Below, one piece after another: positions 3,709 to 48,224 of a stretch of 64,000 nt of DNA. This DNA is from Methanotrichaceae archaeon (GTDB lineage Archaea > Halobacteriota > Methanosarcinia > Methanotrichales > Methanotrichaceae): NCBI GenBank assembly GCA_963813075.1, contig CAWEXU010000030.1:64001-128000 (forward strand), given 5' to 3'. The stretch's first letter is position 1; each line of letters starts with the position of its first letter. The position numbers and the translations under genes were made by a program. The notes below the pieces were generated by a model. That model searched no databases, had not been told where the DNA came from, and saw only the letters and a program-made list of their open reading frames with translations.

Positions 3709-4356
3709 CTATATCGGAGGGGATCTCTTTTTTCCTCTGCCGGGCAGAGTTCTATATATCCGTGCCCCTGAGGCGATCGCTCCGGAGGCACTCAGCCTCT
3801 GGATATGAGGCGATATATCCCCGCTCCTCTGCAGGAACTGCTCAGCCACCAGCCCCTCCAGCTTCTTTTTGTCCACCATCTTCCCCTTTCCAATCCCCGG
3901 ACAGGTGGGATTGTAGCTGATGTTAAGAAGTATATCTCCATTGGATAGCGTCTCCTCTTCCACCCGAAAAGGAAAGAGCCGGCAGGCGATCGGACGCATG
4001 GAATAGATGCTGCAGCCCTCCCGGTAGAAGACGCAGGTGGTATCCTCTTTGCTTTTCATCACCGGCAGGTCGAGGATCACCCGTCGCCCCTCATCCTCGA
4101 TTCTAACATAGCAGCCACTGTATTCGTATAGGGTATCCACGAAGTCCGGGGGCCTTTTGCCCGTCCTTTTGCTGATGGCACAGACATCCTTCTCCGTGAG
4201 ATAGATCAGGTTGGAGCTTCTCCAAAAATCCTCTATCTGCTCAGAGGGAATGAGATCATCGAACTCCAGAGGCCTTTTATGGTGGCAGCATGAGCCGCAC
4301 CTCTGGCACTGGAATCGGATATTGCCAAATATGGCTTTTACCATAACCCGGGGCAT
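3709..4356 (-). CDS. YkgJ/FliB family CxxCxxCC cysteine-cluster protein
   Basis: FQCQRCGSCC ... CVFY..GCSIY..RPIACRLFPF ... CPGIG. ATG at 4356 follows a GAGGGG RBS. Confidence 0.9.
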   Translation of the reverse strand: MPRVMVKAIFGNIRFQCQRCGSCCHHKRPLEFDDLIPSEQIEDFWRSSNLIYLTEKDVCAISKRTGKRPPDFVDTLYEYSGCYVRIEDEGRRVILDLPVMKSKEDTTCVFYREGCSIYSMRPIACRLFPFRVEEETLSNGDILLNISYNPTCPGIGKGKMVDKKKLEGLVAEQFLQRSGDISPHIQRLSASGAIASGARIYRTLPGRGKKRSPPI

Positions 4357-4392
4357 AAATCCCCTCAAAAAAAGAGAAAAGGAGAAGGCGAC

Positions 4393-5328
4393 CTAAAGGG
4401 TCGTCTTCAGGGGATGCTTCTCGGCCAGAACTTCCAGTCCCAGCTCCTGGGCGGACTCTGCCTTCATGATATCCACCATTGCTGCCGCGGGGAAGATCAT
4501 GGGGGCGTTCTCAATGGGCCCGTAGAGGTAGTAGTCAGCACCGACGATTCCGGCCACCAGGTTCGAGCCGATATCGACAGGAGCGAAAGCCTCCTTGTGC
4601 TGCTTCTTCCACTTCTTCATCCAGTCCCAGGCAGATGCGCCGTTATGGAATCCTCCGCCCACCGGCAGGCCGTACATGGCCTTGATGGCGATGCAAGCCC
4701 TGTAGGTTGCACCGGATCCGGCTCCCAGGGGCATGGCTGCGGTATCGATGAGAGGCCTGGTGATGCCGCACTCTTTGGCGTAATCCATCAGAGGCTTCTG
4801 AGCGCCGCCTGCGGCCTTGTTCATCATGTCCAGCTTGCCCTTGGTCCCCTTCTCAATGGCGTTGAAGATGAGGATGATCGCCGAGTCAAGATCGCTCTCT
4901 TTGACTGCTGCCAGCTCCTCGGGGGTGATGGAGGCATTGATGGAGTTATGGATGGCTCTGTCTGCCACACCGATCTCTGTGGCGTGCTTGACGCCGAAGG
5001 CCCGCACCTCTGGGGCAGAGGAGTCGATGAGGAATGGGTAATCGGATATGCCCACGAACCAGTCTATCTCTTTGGCCATGGCCTCATTGCTCTCGGCCAC
5101 GATCTGGTTCATGCAGCTGTTTCCTGTAACCTCGCTCATCTCTACCTGGGTATTCCACAGCCGCTCTGCAGCTGCTACGTCAAAGACACCGTGCTCGGGG
5201 TCTGAGACTATCTTGTGTCTGGCATAGAACATGGTGCCAATGCAGCATGTGGGGTACTCGCCAGGCTGGCCCCCTAACTTGAATTTACCGAAATCGAAGA
5301 CTTCCTGCTTTCTATCAAATCTGAACAT
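4393..5328 (-). CDS. mtrH: Tetrahydromethanopterin S-methyltransferase subunit H
   Basis: MFRFDRKQEV..GGQPGEYPT, LIDSS, NSINAS and LYGPIENA motifs. Last gene of the mtr operon. Confidence 0.97.
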   Translation of the reverse strand: MFRFDRKQEVFDFGKFKLGGQPGEYPTCCIGTMFYARHKIVSDPEHGVFDVAAAERLWNTQVEMSEVTGNSCMNQIVAESNEAMAKEIDWFVGISDYPFLIDSSAPEVRAFGVKHATEIGVADRAIHNSINASITPEELAAVKESDLDSAIILIFNAIEKGTKGKLDMMNKAAGGAQKPLMDYAKECGITRPLIDTAAMPLGAGSGATYRACIAIKAMYGLPVGGGFHNGASAWDWMKKWKKQHKEAFAPVDIGSNLVAGIVGADYYLYGPIENAPMIFPAAAMVDIMKAESAQELGLEVLAEKHPLKTTL

Positions 5329-5586
5329 TCAAATCACCGCCGTCCAATTGCCTGCGTAAACGAACAGTACGTATGCTAAGACCAGGATCAATCCTGCGCA
5401 GATACCATAGGCCATGCCCAGATCTCTGCCGATGGATTTGCCGGCTCTCATATACTTCTCTGAGGAGTAGAACTCTATCTTCTCCTCTATCTTCTCCAGC
5501 CTTGCCATCACATCTCTGAGCTGATCAGGATCGACCACCGCAACGGGTACTACCGGCTTGGTATCTTCTGGCATATGTTCTGGCAT
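5329..5586 (-). CDS. mtrG: Mtr subunit G
   Basis: RLEKIEEKIEF..GKSIGRDLGMAYG plus a TM helix; operon position. Confidence 0.95.
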   Translation of the reverse strand: MPEHMPEDTKPVVPVAVVDPDQLRDVMARLEKIEEKIEFYSSEKYMRAGKSIGRDLGMAYGICAGLILVLAYVLFVYAGNWTAVI

Positions 5587-5589
5587 GGT

Positions 5590-5817
5590 TCAAATCCCTC
5601 CCATGAAGGCAAAAGGCCCCAGCATCATCACAATAGCGAGGACAAAGCCGATGGCAAATCCTACGGAGACCGTGGACATGACGCCAGAGCTGAGCTTGGT
5701 CTCCCTGGCCAGAAGCTGGCCCTTATACCGGACATCCTCTACAATCGCGTCGATCATGGGCATATTTGGCTCTATCACCGCGGGCAATCCCTGGCCATAT
5801 GCAATCTCTTCTGCCAT
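5590..5817 (-). CDS. mtrF: Mtr subunit F
   Basis: VEDVRYKGQLLARETKLSSGV plus a TM helix; operon position. Confidence 0.95.
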   Translation of the reverse strand: MAEEIAYGQGLPAVIEPNMPMIDAIVEDVRYKGQLLARETKLSSGVMSTVSVGFAIGFVLAIVMMLGPFAFMGGI

Positions 5818-5818
5818 T

Positions 5819-6550
5819 TTACATTCCTCCTGCCACTCTGAGAATCAATCCAAAGAGGACCAAGACCACGGTCATGCCCAGAGCTATGCCCTCGATCTTG
5901 CCGGCATAAATGCCCGCTTGGAGCTTATTGAGGAGGCCGACGTTGGTCACGGCGGTGTCTATGCCGCGCATCCGTCCCCTTACCTCCACCATCTCTGCTG
6001 CCATGGGCTTGAGGCCGCCTGCCTCTTCTTCTTCTCCGCCCTCTTTGATCTCAATGGCCATGGGCTCGACATCAAGAGCACCTGGGTCTTTGCTGGCCAG
6101 CTCTTTGACCTTGCCGGCAATGGCCCCGATGTCCTCGGTGTTCATCATCACGACCGCTTCGACCTGCTCCTTCCAGCGCTCAATGGCCTCGGGGGTCAGG
6201 TTCTGGATGAAGGGAATGGCTCCCTTGGCTCCGATGATCCTGCCTTCCTTGTCGATTCCGCTCTGGGTGAAGGCCTCGATCGCCTGCCCGGTGATGTGCC
6301 CCTTAACCTCCATTCCCGTGATCAGGACGTACCTGATGTTGGGGTTGGAGATGACATTGGCCACCATCTTCTCTATGCCGATGTTCTCGGTCTTGCAGGG
6401 CCCGGCCAGAGCCGCTCCCGCCTTGATCAGATCATCGTTGTGAAGGTGCGATCCGCAGGTACATACTGCGACCGGGCTCTCCGGATTTCCCACCTCATAC
6501 TCGCCTGTGATCGTCGGCCAGGGGTCAGAAGGCTTCTTTTTAAGAACCAT
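5819..6550 (-). CDS. mtrA: Mtr subunit A (corrinoid protein)
   Basis: WP..GEY..GNPESPVAVCTCGSH, CKTENIGIEK, EVKGHITGQ and GAIPFI motifs; C-terminal TM. Confidence 0.97.
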   Translation of the reverse strand: MVLKKKPSDPWPTITGEYEVGNPESPVAVCTCGSHLHNDDLIKAGAALAGPCKTENIGIEKMVANVISNPNIRYVLITGMEVKGHITGQAIEAFTQSGIDKEGRIIGAKGAIPFIQNLTPEAIERWKEQVEAVVMMNTEDIGAIAGKVKELASKDPGALDVEPMAIEIKEGGEEEEAGGLKPMAAEMVEVRGRMRGIDTAVTNVGLLNKLQAGIYAGKIEGIALGMTVVLVLFGLILRVAGGM

Positions 6551-6552
6551 CT

Positions 6553-6903
6553 CTAAGCACCTCCAAGAGCTTTCTTGACGATCTCAAATGTGGCCGGATT
6601 GGTGAACGCCATAGATAGCAGCAACACGAAGGACAGCACCAGACCGATGATGAATCCCATCCAGATGTTGGTGTATAGACCTGCTATGTATGATGCCTTT
6701 CCTCTTCTGGCGTACGACGACAGGAGCTCATTGTCCGGCACAAGCTGATTCACGAGGTCGTCAGCCACTTTGTCCAGTATTTCTATTTTCTCATAGACTG
6801 GGTCGAAGGTGAACAAGACCACGTCCGCCCTCTGCTCCGAGACCACTCCTTTCATGGGGTCGAAGATCAGGCCCAGTTCCGGTGAAACTCTAACAAATCC
6901 CAT
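6553..6903 (-). CDS. mtrB: Mtr subunit B
   Basis: VSPELGLIFDP, LDKVADDLVNQL and AGLYTN motifs plus TM; operon position. Confidence 0.95.
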   Translation of the reverse strand: MGFVRVSPELGLIFDPMKGVVSEQRADVVLFTFDPVYEKIEILDKVADDLVNQLVPDNELLSSYARRGKASYIAGLYTNIWMGFIIGLVLSFVLLLSMAFTNPATFEIVKKALGGA

Positions 6904-6915
6904 ATCTAGAACACC

Positions 6916-7752
6916 TCACTGCACCGTTGGCGGCAATAGTCCTGTTCCGACAACCGCGGATGCATCCCTCTTGACCAGACGGTAGAACATCTTGAAGAAG
7001 TAGAACCATATGGCAAAGCCGATGATGATCTGCAGCAGTCCTGCACTCAGGCCCTGGGTCAACAAGGCCCCAATTCCCGTGGTGATCATGGCCAGTCCGC
7101 CCACCATTATCGCATTAACCAGGGTCCTATCCTGCTTCTCATCCGGGCCTAGATTGGCATTGAAGGGATGCAGGATGGCAAGGCCTCCAGCGATGAAGAT
7201 GATGGCGATGTAGCCGGTCATGAGAACATCGTTCACAATATCGGCATATCCCAGAGTGCCGGATATGGCAAAGCTCCAGCCGAGAATGGCCAGTGCGCCT
7301 GCCATGGACAGATCGGCATTGCCCTCCTCCATCACCGGGATGTTGAACTTGATGACCTTGTTGGCGATGACGCCGATAACGTAGCCGAAGACGCCGGCAT
7401 AGACCAGGGTGATGATCGGGCCGAGCATTCCGAATCCCAGTGTTTCTGCCACAGAGAGACCGAACATAACGGCGATGATGCCCATGCCCAATGCGAGCAT
7501 GCCAATTGATGGAACTCCGGTACCAATACCGTAAGCGCAGACTCTTCGCACCGCATTGGCGCCCATGACCACGGCAAATATGGCGGCCACCGCTCCGATA
7601 AAGGAGAACACCTCGGTATTAAGGGCGGAATTGAGTATTGCGCCCAGATATATTCCCACAATAGAGCCCACCAGGCCGTACATTCTCAGCTTCTTGGGGT
7701 CATATGCAGACGGCGCTCCGCCTGCCGCTCCTCCTAAGGACATTTCAGGCAC
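6916..7752 (-). CDS. mtrC: Mtr subunit C
   Basis: VRRVCAYGIGTGVPSIGM, LHPFNANLGPDE and RDASAV motifs. Confidence 0.96.
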   Translation of the reverse strand: MPEMSLGGAAGGAPSAYDPKKLRMYGLVGSIVGIYLGAILNSALNTEVFSFIGAVAAIFAVVMGANAVRRVCAYGIGTGVPSIGMLALGMGIIAVMFGLSVAETLGFGMLGPIITLVYAGVFGYVIGVIANKVIKFNIPVMEEGNADLSMAGALAILGWSFAISGTLGYADIVNDVLMTGYIAIIFIAGGLAILHPFNANLGPDEKQDRTLVNAIMVGGLAMITTGIGALLTQGLSAGLLQIIIGFAIWFYFFKMFYRLVKRDASAVVGTGLLPPTVQ

Positions 7753-10714: not shown

Positions 10715-10812
10715 GCGTCGATGGTCTAGTGGTTATGACTTGGGCCTTCCAGGCAGATCAATAGAATCTGCGAAGCAAGCCTACAACCCGGGTTCGAATC
10801 CCGGTCGACGCA
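10715..10812 (+). tRNA. tRNA-Gly(TCC) with 26-nt intron at 37/38 (10752-10777)
   Basis: Acceptor GCGTCGA/TCGACGC+A, D arm, anticodon stem TGGGC/GCCTA and T arm GGTTCGAATCC. BHB motif: helix CTTC/GAAG with bulges CA|G and CA|A; intron hairpin GCAGAT/ATCTGC. Confidence 0.95.
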
Positions 10813-40438: not shown

Positions 40439-41326
40439 ATGTCATTGAAGTATGTATTAGCTATCGCTCTATTTGCCCTGATAGGGCTGGGAGCGAGTGC
40501 CGAGCAGCAGCAGAACGAATCAATCAGCAACGAATCAGTCAATGTCAGTGAGCCTGCAACTGAGGAACTGGCAAACAGGCTTCTCCAGGTCGCTTATATG
40601 GGTGGTCCTGAGCTAACCCAGGCCGAGCTTCTGCCCGGAAAGCTGCCCGAACAGATGCCAGTGGATCTTCCCATACCCAACGGCTCCCGAATTGTGGGCA
40701 GCGAGATTCTGGAGGATATAGGAATCACTGTGGTTATGGATGTCGCAATGACTCCTGAGGAGGCTTTGGACTTTTATCGTGATGCTCTGGTCCCCCAGAA
40801 CTGGACAGAGACGGATATAACGGGAATGGAAAGAGGATTTATAGGAGGATCGGGCAGTACTATCTTCTGCAAGGGAGGACGAGATCCCTCAGTGATGGTC
40901 TCGGCCTATCCACTGGAGAATGGAACCGATCTTCGCCTGGACATCAGCACTGACCCCTATTATTCCCCCTGCTCAATGACCGACCAATCCGACTGGATGG
41001 AGCCTATGCCAAAACTGGCTGCTCCCAAGGACGCTGTGATCTCCAATCAGAATTCCATGGGCGGCTGGGGAAATCAGGTGACGGTCTCGGCGGAAATAGA
41101 GACGGAATTAGACAGTTCAGCTCTTGCCATTCACTACGCAGATCAGCTAAAGGCAGCTAACTGGACAGCGGTAAGCTCTGAAGAATGCGGTTCTGCCTCC
41201 TGGAGCACCTGGAGCTTTGAGGACGAGGAAGGCATCTCTTGGGATGGCTTTTTGATCGCGCTGGACTTAGCTGGCAGCGAGGATAAGAGGTTTGTCATGA
41301 TGCAGGCCTCGATGGAAGAGAGCTAG
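40439..41326 (+). CDS. Secreted hypothetical protein
   Basis: Signal peptide; two similar ...FY/HY...L...NW half-domains. Confidence 0.7.
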   Translation: MSLKYVLAIALFALIGLGASAEQQQNESISNESVNVSEPATEELANRLLQVAYMGGPELTQAELLPGKLPEQMPVDLPIPNGSRIVGSEILEDIGITVVMDVAMTPEEALDFYRDALVPQNWTETDITGMERGFIGGSGSTIFCKGGRDPSVMVSAYPLENGTDLRLDISTDPYYSPCSMTDQSDWMEPMPKLAAPKDAVISNQNSMGGWGNQVTVSAEIETELDSSALAIHYADQLKAANWTAVSSEECGSASWSTWSFEDEEGISWDGFLIALDLAGSEDKRFVMMQASMEES

Positions 41327-43426: not shown

Positions 43427-43873
43427 ATGAATGAAAAGCTGGACAGCGCCGAAGATCAGGCCGGACCTTGCGGAATTCTATGTGGCTCATGCCCCTTGGG
43501 AAGCGCCAAGATAGCCGAGGCTGCGGGCCGGACCAGACAGAACATCGCAGACTGCGATATTCCAAACTGGGCTCCCTTTGTGCCTGGGGGAAAGGCGATC
43601 GATTGGGCGGCAGTGGATCTGGGCCTGGCCTGGATGGAGGAACATGCCCGCTGCGCAGGATGCGAGAACGGCGGAGGGCCTCCCGACTGCACCATCAGGG
43701 TTTGCGCTCGAGAGAAAGGATACGATCTATGCAGCTCCTGCGAGGAATTGGAGGCCTGCACCAGGTTCGAATGGCTCAGAGATCAAGGCCAGATGATAAA
43801 AGATAGGCTGAATGAGAACCGCGGTCTTTCCAGGGAGGAGTACATCAAAAAGATGACCGCACAGATGCCCTGA
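43427..43873 (+). CDS. DUF3795 Cys-rich protein
   Basis: GPCGILCGSC ... CAGC ... C.IRVCA..KG..LC..C....C motif. Confidence 0.85.
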   Translation: MNEKLDSAEDQAGPCGILCGSCPLGSAKIAEAAGRTRQNIADCDIPNWAPFVPGGKAIDWAAVDLGLAWMEEHARCAGCENGGGPPDCTIRVCAREKGYDLCSSCEELEACTRFEWLRDQGQMIKDRLNENRGLSREEYIKKMTAQMP

Positions 43874-43960
43874 GGGGCTTTGTAGGAGGAACGGGCTGGG
43901 GTAAAGATCCGGAGCTCTCACCATTCCAGGCGCAAACTATATGTATTAATCGTGCCTATG

Positions 43961-44420
43961 AGAACAGGCCGCGTTTTGCGCTGCAAGAAGCAGAGATCCA
44001 GCAATCCGACTGGGCTCTCAGGCCAATAGAGAGATCAAAATACGCATCCTACCGTAGATGCGCCGCTCCCCAAGGCCTGGTGAGGTGCTGTCCCGTAAAC
44101 AGCATCTAAAGCTCATATGGGGCTTAAAAGGGCGAGAGAGATATGCACGCCGTGATGGGCGTAGCAGCATGCCCTCAAGCTGGATTGTAATTCCTGCACC
44201 CAGGACGCGACAGGTGCTGATAAAGAGACGAAGAGCAGACCCAGCATCCTTCGGTGTATTGGGTTCCCGTGAGACGGACGCTGTGTGATAGTCCAGTGCT
44301 GTGTCGCCTCAAAGCAGCATGATGTCGAGATCTTGGGCGAGGTCAGGCCTGCCACCGTGGTGGTTCTGGCTCCTGTGAATAGGACGCTGTGGATCGGCGT
44401 TGACCCGCCCGGGAATCGAT
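43961..44420 (+). ncRNA. Candidate large structured non-coding RNA of unknown family
   Basis: TATA upstream (43938-45), more than ten helices including long-range ones, G-U pairs that favour the + strand, downstream T-tract and no credible ORF. Confidence 0.6.
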
Positions 44421-44590
44421 TGTATTCATTTTTAAAAAAATGCCTCTTGAAACTGTTTACAGATCTAATATAATGGCTCTTTCGGTAACCGGCCTTTCTC
44501 TGACCTCATGAATTAGCATTTCAATTCTATCGCCATCTTGAAAAGAGTTAAATCTATAGCCGCCCTTAATATATTGGTATAGGGAAACAG

Positions 44591-46600
44591 ATGATAGAAC
44601 ATAAATTGCACGATAAGGGCATGGGCCCGCAACCGAGCGAACCTCATAAAACACATCGAGGCAGGCATGAAGGCCATGTAACTGAGGATTTCAAAAGACG
44701 ATTCATAATATGTCTGATTGTTACTATTCCAATCCTCGCCCTCTCAGCATTTATTCAAGATCTGTTTCACTTTAAATTAGAGTTTTCAGGCTCTATTTAT
44801 GCCTTATTCCTTTTATCCACATTTGTTTACTTCTACGGAGGATATCCTTTTCTCAAGGGATTTTTCAATGAAATTAGGGATAAAAACATAGGGATGATGA
44901 CACTGATAGCCACGGCCATCAGTGCAGCTTATTTTTATAGTTCGGCGGTGGCCTTTGGCCTTAAAGGTGAAGTCTTTTTCTGGGAGTTAGCCACACTGAT
45001 CGACATCATGCTTCTCGGTCATTGGATCGAGATGCGATCTGTATTGGGAGCTTCCAGAGCCCTTGAAGAGCTCGTTAGGATCATGCCTTCTGAAGCACAT
45101 TTGATCAAAGATGGCCAGACGATGGACGTCAAAGTCGATACCCTCAAACCTGGAGACCGAGTACTGGTCAAGCCTGGTGAGAAGATACCAGTGGATGGGG
45201 CTGTGATCGACGGGGAGACAAGCGTCAACGAATCGATGCTCACAGGCGAATCCAAGCCCGTTACTAAGAGAGCGCATGATAATGTGATAGGCGGTTCCAT
45301 CAACGGCGAAGGCTCAATCTCCGTAGAAGTTCAGAAAATCGGCTCGGAGACTTATCTCAGTCAGATCATCGAATTGGTCAGGCAGGCCCAGGAGAGCAAA
45401 TCAAAGACTCAGGATCTGGCCGATAATGCCGCTCGCTGGCTCACCATAATATCTCTGAGTGTCGGCGCTATTACTCTTGCCGCCTGGCTCTACTTTGGCA
45501 GGGACTCGGCTTTTGCTGTGGAAAGAGCAGTCACAGTTATGGTTATAGCCTGTCCTCATGCACTTGGTCTGGCGGTCCCTCTTGTGGTTGCAGTCTCGAC
45601 CTCACTCGCGGCAAAATCAGGTCTACTGATCAGAGACAGGTCCGCGTTTGAGAAGGCGAGGGACATTCAGGCGGTGGTCTTCGACAAGACTGGAACTCTG
45701 ACTGAGGGCCAGTCTGGAGTAACTGATGTCGTAGCTCTTGCCGGGCTAAGCCACACCGAGGTCTTAAGAATGATCGCTTCTCTGGAGGCATACTCCGAGC
45801 ATCACATAGCAGCAGGAGTTTTAAGAGCCTCAAAAGAGGAAGGGCTCGATCTTAGTCCTGTTCATGAGTTCAGGGCAATTCCCGGAAAGGGGGTGAGTGG
45901 CCAGGTTGAGGGAAATAGCTGGATGGTGGTGGGCCCGGGCTACCTGAGAGAGAACAATATCGACATAAAGGATGATCAATTGAATAAGCTGGCGGAAGAA
46001 GGAAAGACGGTCGTCTTCTTGCTTAGAGAAAACAGGCCCGTTGGGGCTGTGGCCCTGGCTGATATCGTAAGGAAGGAATCCAGAGAGGCAATTGACAAGC
46101 TTAAGTCGATGAATATCAAATGCATGATGCTAACAGGAGACAATCGTTTTGTGGCCAAGTCGGTGGCGGATGATCTGGGCTTAGACGATTTCTTTGCCGA
46201 AGTGCTTCCTCATGAAAAAGCCCAAACCATAAAAAATGTTCAAAAAGAATATGTTGTGGCTATGGTTGGGGACGGAGTCAATGATGCCCCTGCCCTGGTG
46301 CAGGCAGACGTGGGAATTGCCATAGGAGCTGGCACGGATGTAGCTGTCGAGTCGGCGGACATTGTTCTAGTCAGGAACGATCCAAGGGATGTCGCTGGTA
46401 TCGTTAGTTTATCCAAGAAAACATACGACAAGATGTTCCAGAACCTGTTGTGGGCCACCGGCTACAACGCTTTGGCCATCCCTCTGGCAGCCGGCATCCT
46501 CTATGGCTATGGGATACTCCTAAGCCCTGCCATCGGCGCAATTCTCATGAGCGCCAGCACGGTCATTGTGGCCATTAATGCCAGGCTTCTGAAAATGTAG
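44591..46600 (+). CDS. copB: P1B-3 heavy-metal (copper) translocating P-type ATPase
   Basis: His-rich N-terminus, CPH in the TM region, [19 protein letters not shown] and MSAST motifs. Confidence 0.92.
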
Positions 46601-46711: not shown

Positions 46712-47812
46712 CTAGGCTTTCGCCACAGACTGTAGCCCCAGTCTGAGAATGTTTATAGCGGCGTTATGGTCCCTATCCAGAGTCAGACCACAGAAAGGAC
46801 AACTATGGACTCTTTCTGATAGATCTTTTTGAACCACTTTACCGCAACCAGAGCATATTTGAGATGTGTTTTTGGGATTCACTAGTTCGACACGTTTACC
46901 GGCCCATTCTGCCTTGTAAGATGTGGTAGTTATTAGTTTGCTCCAAGCAGCATCCGATATATGCTTTGCAAGACAATGATTCTTGACCATGCCCTTGATA
47001 TTCAAGTCTTCGAAGGCTATAAAGTCATAGGATTTAACCAGGGATATGGAGAGCTTTTGAACAAAATCATCCCTCTTGTTGGTAATTCTTTCATGAACCC
47101 TATGAACCACTTTTAAGGCTCTAGCCCTTTCCGGTGTTCCTTTTTCTGCATTTGATAGCTTTCTCTGAGCCTTTGCCAGAGCATTTTCTTCATGAACAAA
47201 AAATCTTGGATTATCTACCTGCTCGCCATTTGATAGGGTGATGAAGTTTTTCAAACCCACATCAACGCCTATTGATAATCCGGTATTCGGAAGAGGTTCA
47301 TCCGGTTCAACTTCAACCAGGAAGGATACAAACCATTTTCCGGTAGGCATTATTCTGATATTAAGCCTCTGGATTTCTCCATCTACAGCTCTATGAAGCT
47401 TGATCTTGATATCTCCGATCTTGGATAACCATAGTTTGCCGGGCTTCAGGGAAAAGCCTGATTGAGTATAGGTGAAGCTATCGTACCTGCCATAGCCCTT
47501 GAACCTGGGATATCCCGGGTTTTCTCCTGCCTCGACTCTTCGGAAGAAGGCTTGATAGGCCAAATCAACTCTTTTGACGACTTCCTGTAGAACCTGAGAA
47601 TGGACTTCTTTCAATTCGAGCTTTTCTTCTTTCCATCCTGGCAAAAGCTTCTTGGTATCGTAATAGGAGAGAGATTTGCCTTCTTGCTCGTAAGCGTTCT
47701 TCCTGATGGCTAGTACTTCGTTATAGGTCCATCTGCAAAGCTCCAAGGTGTCAGCCATCTTGGTTCTCTGAGATTTTGTAGGATAGATCCTATAGCGAAG
47801 CACTTTCAGCAA
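46712..47812 (-). CDS. tnpB: RNA-guided endonuclease TnpB
   Basis: YRIYPT, GYPRFK, RuvC GVDVG / FEDL / DRDHNAAINI and Zn finger CSGC..CPFC. Confidence 0.96.
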   Translation of the reverse strand: MLKVLRYRIYPTKSQRTKMADTLELCRWTYNEVLAIRKNAYEQEGKSLSYYDTKKLLPGWKEEKLELKEVHSQVLQEVVKRVDLAYQAFFRRVEAGENPGYPRFKGYGRYDSFTYTQSGFSLKPGKLWLSKIGDIKIKLHRAVDGEIQRLNIRIMPTGKWFVSFLVEVEPDEPLPNTGLSIGVDVGLKNFITLSNGEQVDNPRFFVHEENALAKAQRKLSNAEKGTPERARALKVVHRVHERITNKRDDFVQKLSISLVKSYDFIAFEDLNIKGMVKNHCLAKHISDAAWSKLITTTSYKAEWAGKRVELVNPKNTSQICSGCGKVVQKDLSERVHSCPFCGLTLDRDHNAAINILRLGLQSVAKA

Positions 47813-47813
47813 A

Positions 47814-48224
47814 TCACTTCACCTTTTGCATCTCTACATATCGTTCTATTACATCCTTGGTAGCATCTCCACAAGTGCCAACATAGTAAGATGGATTCCA
47901 AAGATGGCCATCCCAAAGCTGATCTCTTAGTTCAGGATGCGTTTCAAAGAGCTTCTTTGCCGTAATGCCTTTGAAGATCTTGGCAATGTTAGCAGGAGCA
48001 AATATAGGATGAGCTGTCATGAAGAGGTGAACATGATCCGGCAGGATCTCCTGATTGATCAATGTAATTCCCTTCTGCTTTGCTATCAATTCATGCAACC
48101 AATGAAGGTCTTCGGCGATTGAACCAATAAGAACCTTCCTTCGATACTTTGTTGACCATACGAAGTGATAATACACGTTATAGACGCATCCCCTTGCGTT
48201 TATACAATGCTCTTGCTTAGTCAT
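47814..48224 (-). CDS. tnpA: IS200-type HUH (Y1) transposase
   Basis: YHFVWSTKYRR, PDHVHLF, LWNPSYYVGT and YVEMQ motifs. Confidence 0.96.
   Translation of the reverse strand: MTKQEHCINARGCVYNVYYHFVWSTKYRRKVLIGSIAEDLHWLHELIAKQKGITLINQEILPDHVHLFMTAHPIFAPANIAKIFKGITAKKLFETHPELRDQLWDGHLWNPSYYVGTCGDATKDVIERYVEMQKVK

Follow-up and report, generated by a model that had tools for sequence, protein, structure and literature searches.

The window analyzed here is a stretch of 64,000 nucleotides (nt) from a Methanotrichaceae archaeon (GenBank assembly GCA_963813075.1, contig CAWEXU010000030.1, positions 64,001 to 128,000 of the forward strand). The subject of this study is an RNA gene, which lies in the gap between a DUF3795 gene and a P-type ATPase gene (43874–44590 of the window). 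The ATPase gene starts 165 nt past the RNA gene and on the same strand. A preliminary description made from the sequence had placed a structured non-coding element with its own promoter at 43935–44442, between the DUF3795 gene and a copper-type P-type ATPase gene. The gene matches on both sides agree with this position, and the element almost certainly represents a new family of structured RNA genes and is expressed (Table 1). The limits of the gene are approximate: 43964–43980 for its 5′ end, and for its 3′ end the interval from 44405 to the following T tract.

The open reading frames (ORFs) overlapping the RNA region encode only 44 to 80 amino acids. For the five overlapping ORFs which were tested no Pfam match was obtained at E ≤ 1, and no open frame common to the homologous copies was found, which rules out a decayed protein gene and bears out the earlier statement that a credible ORF is missing. 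Furthermore, indels between close homologues are not multiples of three. The GC content of the RNA region is 0.52–0.585, compared to 0.34–0.42 in the downstream DNA and 0.55–0.64 in the upstream gene; the term GC-rich island, used before, is therefore appropriate with respect to the downstream but not to the upstream side. The minimum free energy of the + strand is −187 kcal/mol (z = −2.53, with 1 of 100 shuffled sequences being as good), and the z-score of the minus strand is close to it (−2.39). Due to these nearly equal values, folding energy alone proves little and does not indicate the strand. However, G-U pairs occur in at least seven consensus helices and would become C-A on the other strand, so that the fold works on the + strand only, as had been concluded before from the G-U pairs of individual helices.

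The RNA gene is preceded by a box which probably acts as its promoter, and the TATA-like part of this box sits ~28 nt before the first paired base of the RNA. In the alignments, the box consensus (..ACCGCmAACT-AyAAnTAT..) is also found ahead of copies of the RNA gene at unrelated loci. Four of the five copies in the source genome carry the same promoter box and the fifth one, located at C4, carries a variant. Such a common box suggests joint regulation of the copies. In most copies, the inverted repeat ATCTATA-N7-TATAGAT lies between the TATA-like box and the start of the RNA (e.g., G000:C30 at about 16190 and 13345) and might be an operator through which one regulator acts on all of them. The copy of the window shows a weaker inverted repeat (CTATA-N15-CTATG).

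In archaeal genes, oligo-T tracts serve as terminators. Because of this, transcription of the RNA gene seems to be terminated at the T tract downstream of it. Every aligned copy becomes T-rich within ~5–15 nt of the conserved end TCGAT/TTGAT. Both the TATA sequence and the T/A tract following the element had already been recognized in the preliminary description.

Copies, distribution and genomic context

When a 516-nt stretch was used as blastn query against 40 relatives, a match was obtained in each of the 24 genomes sampled from the same genus. Full-length homologues with 67–93% identity are present in about 11 genomes, and the last ~160 nt are matched by blastn at several places per genome, with 54 of the 59 genomes tested in the genus being positive. 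In addition, a covariance model, named R1, was built on this 3′ part of the RNA. R1 matches the + sense only and identified five copies in the source genome, including the copy of the window with a score of 160.7 bits. It was positive in 53 of the 74 sampled Methanotrichaceae genomes, which represent 11 of 15 genera and carry 1–10 copies each. No R1 match was found in 13 genomes of the four remaining Methanotrichaceae genera, in 76 genomes from four further families of the class and in 150 other genomes of the phylum. A search of 185,579 species genomes with a degenerate 24-nt motif gave 59 loci, which without exception lie in records titled Methanothrix, Methanosaeta, Methanotrichaceae, uncultured Methanosarcinales or uncultured archaeon. 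Judged by these searches, the RNA gene family is confined to the Methanotrichaceae, the Methanothrix family; the genomes surveyed are samples, many of them incomplete, so that "not found" elsewhere is no proof of absence. Membership in a multicopy, lineage-restricted family had not been part of the preliminary description.

In addition to the copy of the window, the source genome contains a pair of near-identical copies which are separated by 2.8 kb and belong to a second subfamily, as well as a shorter copy of a third type and a divergent fifth copy. Paralogues in one genome are only ~70% identical. The subfamilies differ mainly in their 5′ domain and coexist across genera, which indicates that the duplication is old and that the copies are probably not redundant. 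In one paralogue (L019), about five 12-nt tandem repeats (GGGCAACGTGCA-like) are inserted in the variable 5′ domain.

The genes downstream of the RNA differ by locus. Here it is the P-type ATPase gene, at orthologous loci a gene for a nucleoside phosphorylase or a metalloenzyme, and at further loci others again, some of them on the opposite strand. This variation argues for an RNA which acts in trans and not in cis. On the promoter side, the five closest homologous loci have all retained a DUF169 gene, an indication of vertical descent.

Secondary structure and covariation

The consensus structure consists of three units, namely a 5′ domain (D1) closed by the long-range helix P1, followed by the two four-way-junction modules D2 and D3 (Table 1). 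For P1, alignment columns 5–11 and 304–310 are 97% paired and two of the pairs are compensatory. In another subfamily, GCCGCUUCAUGC pairs with GCAUGAAGCGGC in place of P1. The closing helices of D2 covary between the subfamilies, with GAGGC/GCCUC in one and (UCG)AAGGCG/CGCCUU(CGA) in the other, and likewise GCUG/CAGC and GCCG/CGGC.

For 24 full-length copies RNAalifold predicted 69 consensus pairs, 21 of which are compensatory, and for the 3′ module, in an alignment of 32 copies, 44 pairs with 13 compensatory ones. In the full-length structure 96.2% of the cells are paired, compared to 39–49% if the partners are slid by 1–3 columns, and column shuffles reached the observed value in 0 of 500 cases on four of five measures and in 2 of 500 on the fifth; as one and the same alignment was used to derive and to score the structure, and as the shuffles keep the relatedness of the sequences, these figures are supportive and do not constitute a formal test. 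In a genome-wide scan for extra covarying pairs, the signal was dominated by subfamily relatedness.

Each of the modules D2 and D3 is built of a closing stem bearing three hairpins. Their local alignment score is 35, compared to 20.4 ± 3.9 for shuffled sequences, of which 1 in 500 scored as high, and the 10-mer GGACGCTGTG is present in both (at 44276 in D2 and at 44382 in D3). By this comparison, the two modules are duplicates. Both are conserved across the subfamilies, whereas D1 is sharply different between subfamilies coexisting in one genome.

About three quarters of the helices listed in the preliminary description are supported by family covariation or consensus folds. These are the helices GATCCAGC/GCTGGATT and AGGTGCTGT/ACAGCATCT, the long-range pairing GGGCG-A-GGTCA/TGACC-CGCCC as well as the hairpins ACGCC/GGCGT, ACCCAG/TTGGGT, CCGT/ACGG, CCAC/GTGG, TCCTG/TAGGA, and ACGCTG/CGGCGT. 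The others had to be abandoned or reassigned. For the proposed pairing of AGAACAGGCC (43961–70) with GGCCTG and TTCT, the family pairs 43970–78 with 44201–09 instead, and the hairpin GCACC/GGTGC clashes with this helix. The hairpin CTGC/GCAG is not conserved. CTCTC, formerly placed in a local hairpin with GAGAG, has its covarying partner distally, around 44080–85, and CAGCAT (44315–20) pairs in the conserved structure with the upstream GTGCTG (44214–19) and not with 44297–302. The alternative pairing of TCGCCT (44304–09) with GGGCGA, from which a pseudoknot or switch had been suggested, is a candidate only: RNAalifold chose it on the 24 copies, but the same GGGCG is also used in the D3 stem and GCCUC has a covarying upstream partner.

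Table 1. Coordinates of the RNA gene, its structural elements and neighbouring features (window positions unless stated otherwise).
Feature	Position	Strand	Remarks
DUF3795 gene	43427–43873		upstream neighbour; Pfam E = 1.2e-12
Predicted promoter box	43930–43949	+	GCGCAAACT, then TATA-like TATATGTA (43938–45)
RNA gene	43966–44424	+	~440–460 nt; based on homologues, RNA-library contigs and covariation
P1, 5′ strand	43970–43978	+	CGCGUUUUG; pairs with 44201–44209
5′ domain D1	43979–44200	+	~220 nt, inside P1; most divergent part between subfamilies
D1 helices	43995–44002/44179–86; hairpins 44084–91/44099–106 and 44145–51/44158–65		CTCTC 44015–19 paired distally
P1, 3′ strand	44201–44209	+	CAGGACGCG
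Module D2	44214–44320	+	four-way junction; from consensus folds
D2 closing helices	44214–19/44315–20 and 44225–29/44306–10		
D2 hairpins	44238–65, 44266–77, 44278–99		UUCG loop (44238–65), GAGA loop (44266–77)
Module D3	44324–44420	+	four-way junction; best-conserved part of the family; homologous to D2
D3 closing stem	44324–45/44401–20		long, interrupted
D3 hairpins	44346–71, 44370–84, 44385–99		
Likely termination region	44425–44442	+	T5 at 44429–33, then A7
P-type ATPase gene	44591–46600	+	downstream neighbour; E1-E2_ATPase E = 2.3e-58
IS200/IS605-type element	46748–48188	−	just past the ATPase gene; TnpB zinc-ribbon C30:110748–110945, Y1 transposase C30:111826–112188
TnpB gene at C4	L135 1414–2850 (G000:C4)		395 amino acids; points away from the divergent fifth RNA copy

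Expression

Part of a 1-kb stretch is contained in 23 of the 24 listed public runs, and 19 of these, originating from 17 studies, are recorded as RNA. Most of them contain roughly one third of the sampled words, a fraction equal to that occupied by the RNA gene. Four runs from four studies were examined in detail, all of them as assembled contigs. In all four, the contigs cover only the region from 43977 to 44351–44410, with word depths of 10, 22, 188, and 1936, while the depth of the ATPase gene is 0 in each run and that of the DUF3795 gene is 4.2 in one run and 0 in three. The RNA is thus present at high depth in RNA libraries of several independent studies.

The 5′ ends of the contigs are located within 43977–43991 and the 3′ ends within the range given above. 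Adapter letters abut the positions 43977, 43980, 43991, and 44405 in one orientation, which would fit + strand fragments if the library was a stranded one, and is only a hint. With three differing 5′ adapter junctions, a single natural 5′ end is unproven.

Comparison with known RNAs

Using Rfam 15 at gathering score, no match was found over the whole window except for two tRNAs elsewhere in it. For the region 43800–44600, there was no match even at E ≤ 10, including RNase P, signal recognition particle RNA, HEARO, GOLLD, ROOL, OLE, raiA, and group I/II introns, and four loci with other paralogues yielded none at E ≤ 1. A literature search, in which several queries were poorly ranked and which did not extend to subscription journals, returned no description of this RNA family. 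In two papers naming both the genus and non-coding RNA, the mention is confined to the methods. The earlier assignment to no known RNA family is in line with these results, as is the view of a large ornate non-coding RNA, possibly undescribed, for which homologues, covariation and expression have been found. The checks named with it likewise turned out in its favour, since the folding energy beats the shuffled sequences, transcription and covariation are present, and neither a protein nor an Rfam match was obtained.

Several candidate assignments were checked individually. The RNase P RNA of the genome (RF00373) is located at C6:52441–52743 with 216 bits at a cut-off of 84. It resembles the Methanothrix RNA in its abundance, its size class and a fold of several domains with a terminal closing helix; unlike it, the Methanothrix RNA is multicopy, lineage-restricted and without RNase P match. 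A tRNA- or tmRNA-like element was rejected with ARAGORN, which predicted 0 genes in 43800–44600. For Y RNA bound in a Ro ribonucleoprotein, the TROVE domain (PF05731) was searched and gave 0 matches; as the genome is 83% complete, this does not prove its absence. An antisense regulator with long targets was also discarded, as blastn-short against the genome gave only matches of 14–18 nt at chance level (E ≥ 0.24).

As a descriptive kind and not as a homologous family, the RNA can be called a large ornate orphan non-coding RNA, being longer than 400 nt, non-coding and expressed and having covarying helices. It is similar to OLE, GOLLD, ROOL, and raiA of bacteria and phages in its length of at least 400 nt, its many covarying helices and junctions, its abundance and its own promoter. 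Unlike these RNAs, it is archaeal, limited to one methanogen family and without Rfam match; it has several old, diverged paralogues behind a shared promoter box and an internal module duplication, and it is not located on phage or plasmid DNA save for one record. A functional analogy exists to the Y RNAs with Ro60, to vault RNAs and to CsrB-type sponges. These are also abundant, have paralogues with own promoters and combine a conserved protein-binding part with a variable part. There is no sequence relation to them, and the Ro partner is covered by the TROVE search above.

Proposed function and alternative explanations

Own promoter and terminator, a high RNA level, conserved and duplicated modules, variable 5′ domains and the lack of a linked protein gene are together best explained by a trans-acting RNA. 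In the proposed mechanism, a free-standing gene with an archaeal promoter and an oligo-T terminator would give rise to an abundant and stable RNA of ~450 nt. This RNA would act in trans as a protein-binding scaffold, i.e., as the RNA part of a ribonucleoprotein. The duplicated 3′ modules D2 and D3 with their near-invariant loops could form the common binding platform, and the specificity or the partner of the individual paralogue would be determined by its subfamily-specific 5′ domain. Such a trans-acting scaffold RNA is a plausible but tentative assignment. More speculative, and possible at best, is the wider proposal of a new archaeal RNA class, in which the family would be the core of a hitherto unrecognized lineage-specific ribonucleoprotein or RNA-only machine, with constant 3′ modules and swappable 5′ domains which retarget it.

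Several points weigh against the scaffold. A partner protein was not identified, and no protein gene is consistently linked to the RNA at 31 loci. In the copy of the window, no recognizable protein-binding motif was found, and a UGAUGA…CUGA string, which we take to be C/D-box-like, is present only in another subfamily. An RNA-only assembly or a ribozyme would account just as well for the features from which the scaffold is proposed. Moreover, the folding-energy z-score is modest and about equal on both strands, the covariance model is built on related sequences with a shuffle control that keeps their relatedness, and the expression data are all assembled contigs, which cannot show ends, strand or level.

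An RNA-only machine is the first alternative. GOLLD, ROOL, and OLE form RNA-only complexes according to the abstracts of the respective papers, and the Methanothrix RNA could in the same way be a homo-oligomer whose function arises from its quaternary shape. Its size, the multi-junction build, the GNRA and UUCG loops and the very high abundance in environmental RNA are compatible with this, and the internal duplication could give self-complementary surfaces. However, neither sequence nor structure matches ROOL, GOLLD or OLE, and a single homo-oligomer is harder to reconcile with the presence of several diverged paralogues per genome. Such a machine is regarded as unlikely.

Slightly less credit is given to a base-pairing regulator or sponge, in which exposed segments would pair with mRNAs, with the 3′ end of the 16S rRNA or with neighbouring small RNAs bearing CCUCC. 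In 16 of 61 distinct copies, 13 of which belong to one subfamily, a conserved promoter-like box GAAAGCCTTTTATCTCGGCAATTGAC is located ~55 nt downstream, together with a C/U-rich unit containing two CCCUCC motifs (e.g., L037 1722–1830, and at 15 other loci), and a conserved GAGAGGUGCUG string is present in the 5′ domain. On the other hand, the consensus fold has the GAGGUG string in a paired state, the copy of the window has no neighbouring CCCUCC unit, and antisense matches to the rest of the genome do not exceed 16–18 nt (E ≥ 0.24).

The RNA could further be a relic or helper RNA of mobile elements, either as an orphan guide-type RNA of IS200/IS605 TnpB or IscB acting in trans or as a cassette of integrative elements. 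Several findings speak for this and against a non-mobile gene. The genome contains 14 TnpB and 7 Y1-transposase matches. An IS200/IS605-type element is located 2.3 kb downstream of the copy in the window, and at C4 a divergent tnpB gene starts ~250 nt upstream of the promoter box of the RNA. The family is multicopy with sharp left and right conservation limits, T(C/T)(G/A)AC and T(C/T)GAT, respectively, both of the form T-Y-R/G-A. Finally, tandem RNA copies in two genomes flank small toxin-antitoxin islands.

Most of the evidence is nevertheless opposed to a mobile origin, which is considered improbable. Among 111 flanking ORFs at 31 loci, not one has a transposase, TnpB, reverse-transcriptase or integrase domain. 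The five RNA copies and the 14 TnpB matches of the genome do not coincide, and R1 matches the five copies but no TnpB locus. The RNA has its own conserved promoter, its copies are old with ~70% identity in the genome, and the locus is syntenic across species. An IS200/IS605 omega RNA or reRNA was ruled out, as the 31 loci lack a flanking tnpB and as no locus-specific guide of ~16–20 nt exists at either end; the 5′ end is the conserved helix P1, and the short T-rich tract follows past TCGAT/TTGAT. The Methanothrix RNA shares with TnpB omega RNA or reRNA and with HEARO/IscB omegaRNA a structured multicopy nature, a sharp 3′ conservation limit and a TnpB-rich genome. It differs from them by the lack of an adjacent tnpB or iscB gene, by its promoter, by the missing guide, by old and syntenic copies and by the lack of a HEARO match. 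Plasmid or phage origin was rejected as well, since blastn in its "distant" setting found no match in either the plasmid or the phage collection.

In a viral contig collection, one match was obtained in an IMG/VR record (L066 7733–8910), with the copy on apparent host DNA. An integrase gene abuts the promoter side of this copy, ending ~80 nt from the RNA promoter, and is followed by ArdC, terminase and portal genes, so that a provirus, truncated in this record, seems to have been inserted next to the RNA gene. A second partial RNA copy or an attachment-site repeat was not found in the 25-kb L066 fragment. The RNA as viral cargo or as integration target is not supported, given the apparent host DNA and the missing attachment-site repeat.

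Two toxin-antitoxin islands between tandem RNA copies were inspected. In the source genome, the island (L127, G000:C30:9000–20000, 3829–7180) encodes HicA and a ribbon-helix-helix protein, and in another genome (L037 1166–3106) it contains a MazF/PemK-like gene. In these tandem islands, the repeated unit stops exactly at the RNA gene boundaries. The IS200/IS605-type element of the window is one of four like copies among the 14 TnpB matches.

A ribozyme of a new catalytic class, either self-processing or acting on other substrates, would agree with the large size, with the long-range helix that closes a fold of several domains and with near-invariant unpaired or loop nucleotides inside conserved junctions, but is very unlikely. 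The contigs are unbroken across almost the whole RNA without internal end or splice (contigs, however, cannot show RNA ends), there is no match to an Rfam ribozyme, and the RNase P RNA of the genome is located elsewhere. Hardly any weight is left for a cis-acting leader or riboswitch of the copper-type ATPase gene, suggested by the position upstream of this gene on its strand, or for the decayed protein gene, as the data already contradict both: the downstream genes are diverse even at orthologous loci and often on the other strand, the T tract follows the RNA and its coverage ends before the ATPase gene, and a Pfam match or conserved frame is missing.

Methanothrix (formerly Methanosaeta) comprises the main acetate-using methanogens worldwide and is among the most important biogenic methane producers in wetlands, rice fields and anaerobic digesters. 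Few large structured RNAs without an assigned function are known from archaea. With up to ten copies and a depth far above that of neighbouring genes, the RNA is likely to be a significant component of these cells which was missed by annotation. The coexisting subfamilies, the module duplication and the shared promoter offer a testable entry into unexplored archaeal RNA biology, and the covariance model could be used to annotate loci in hundreds of metagenome-assembled genomes and to explain part of the "unassigned" reads in methanogenic metatranscriptomes.

Further features of the window

The 10-mer GGACGCTGTG occurs a third time in the window at position 41029. This occurrence is located inside a 300-amino-acid ORF and was rejected as chance. 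A tRNA match on the + strand at 10715–10812 spans 98 nt, compared to 71 positions of the model, and may be an intron-bearing archaeal tRNA.

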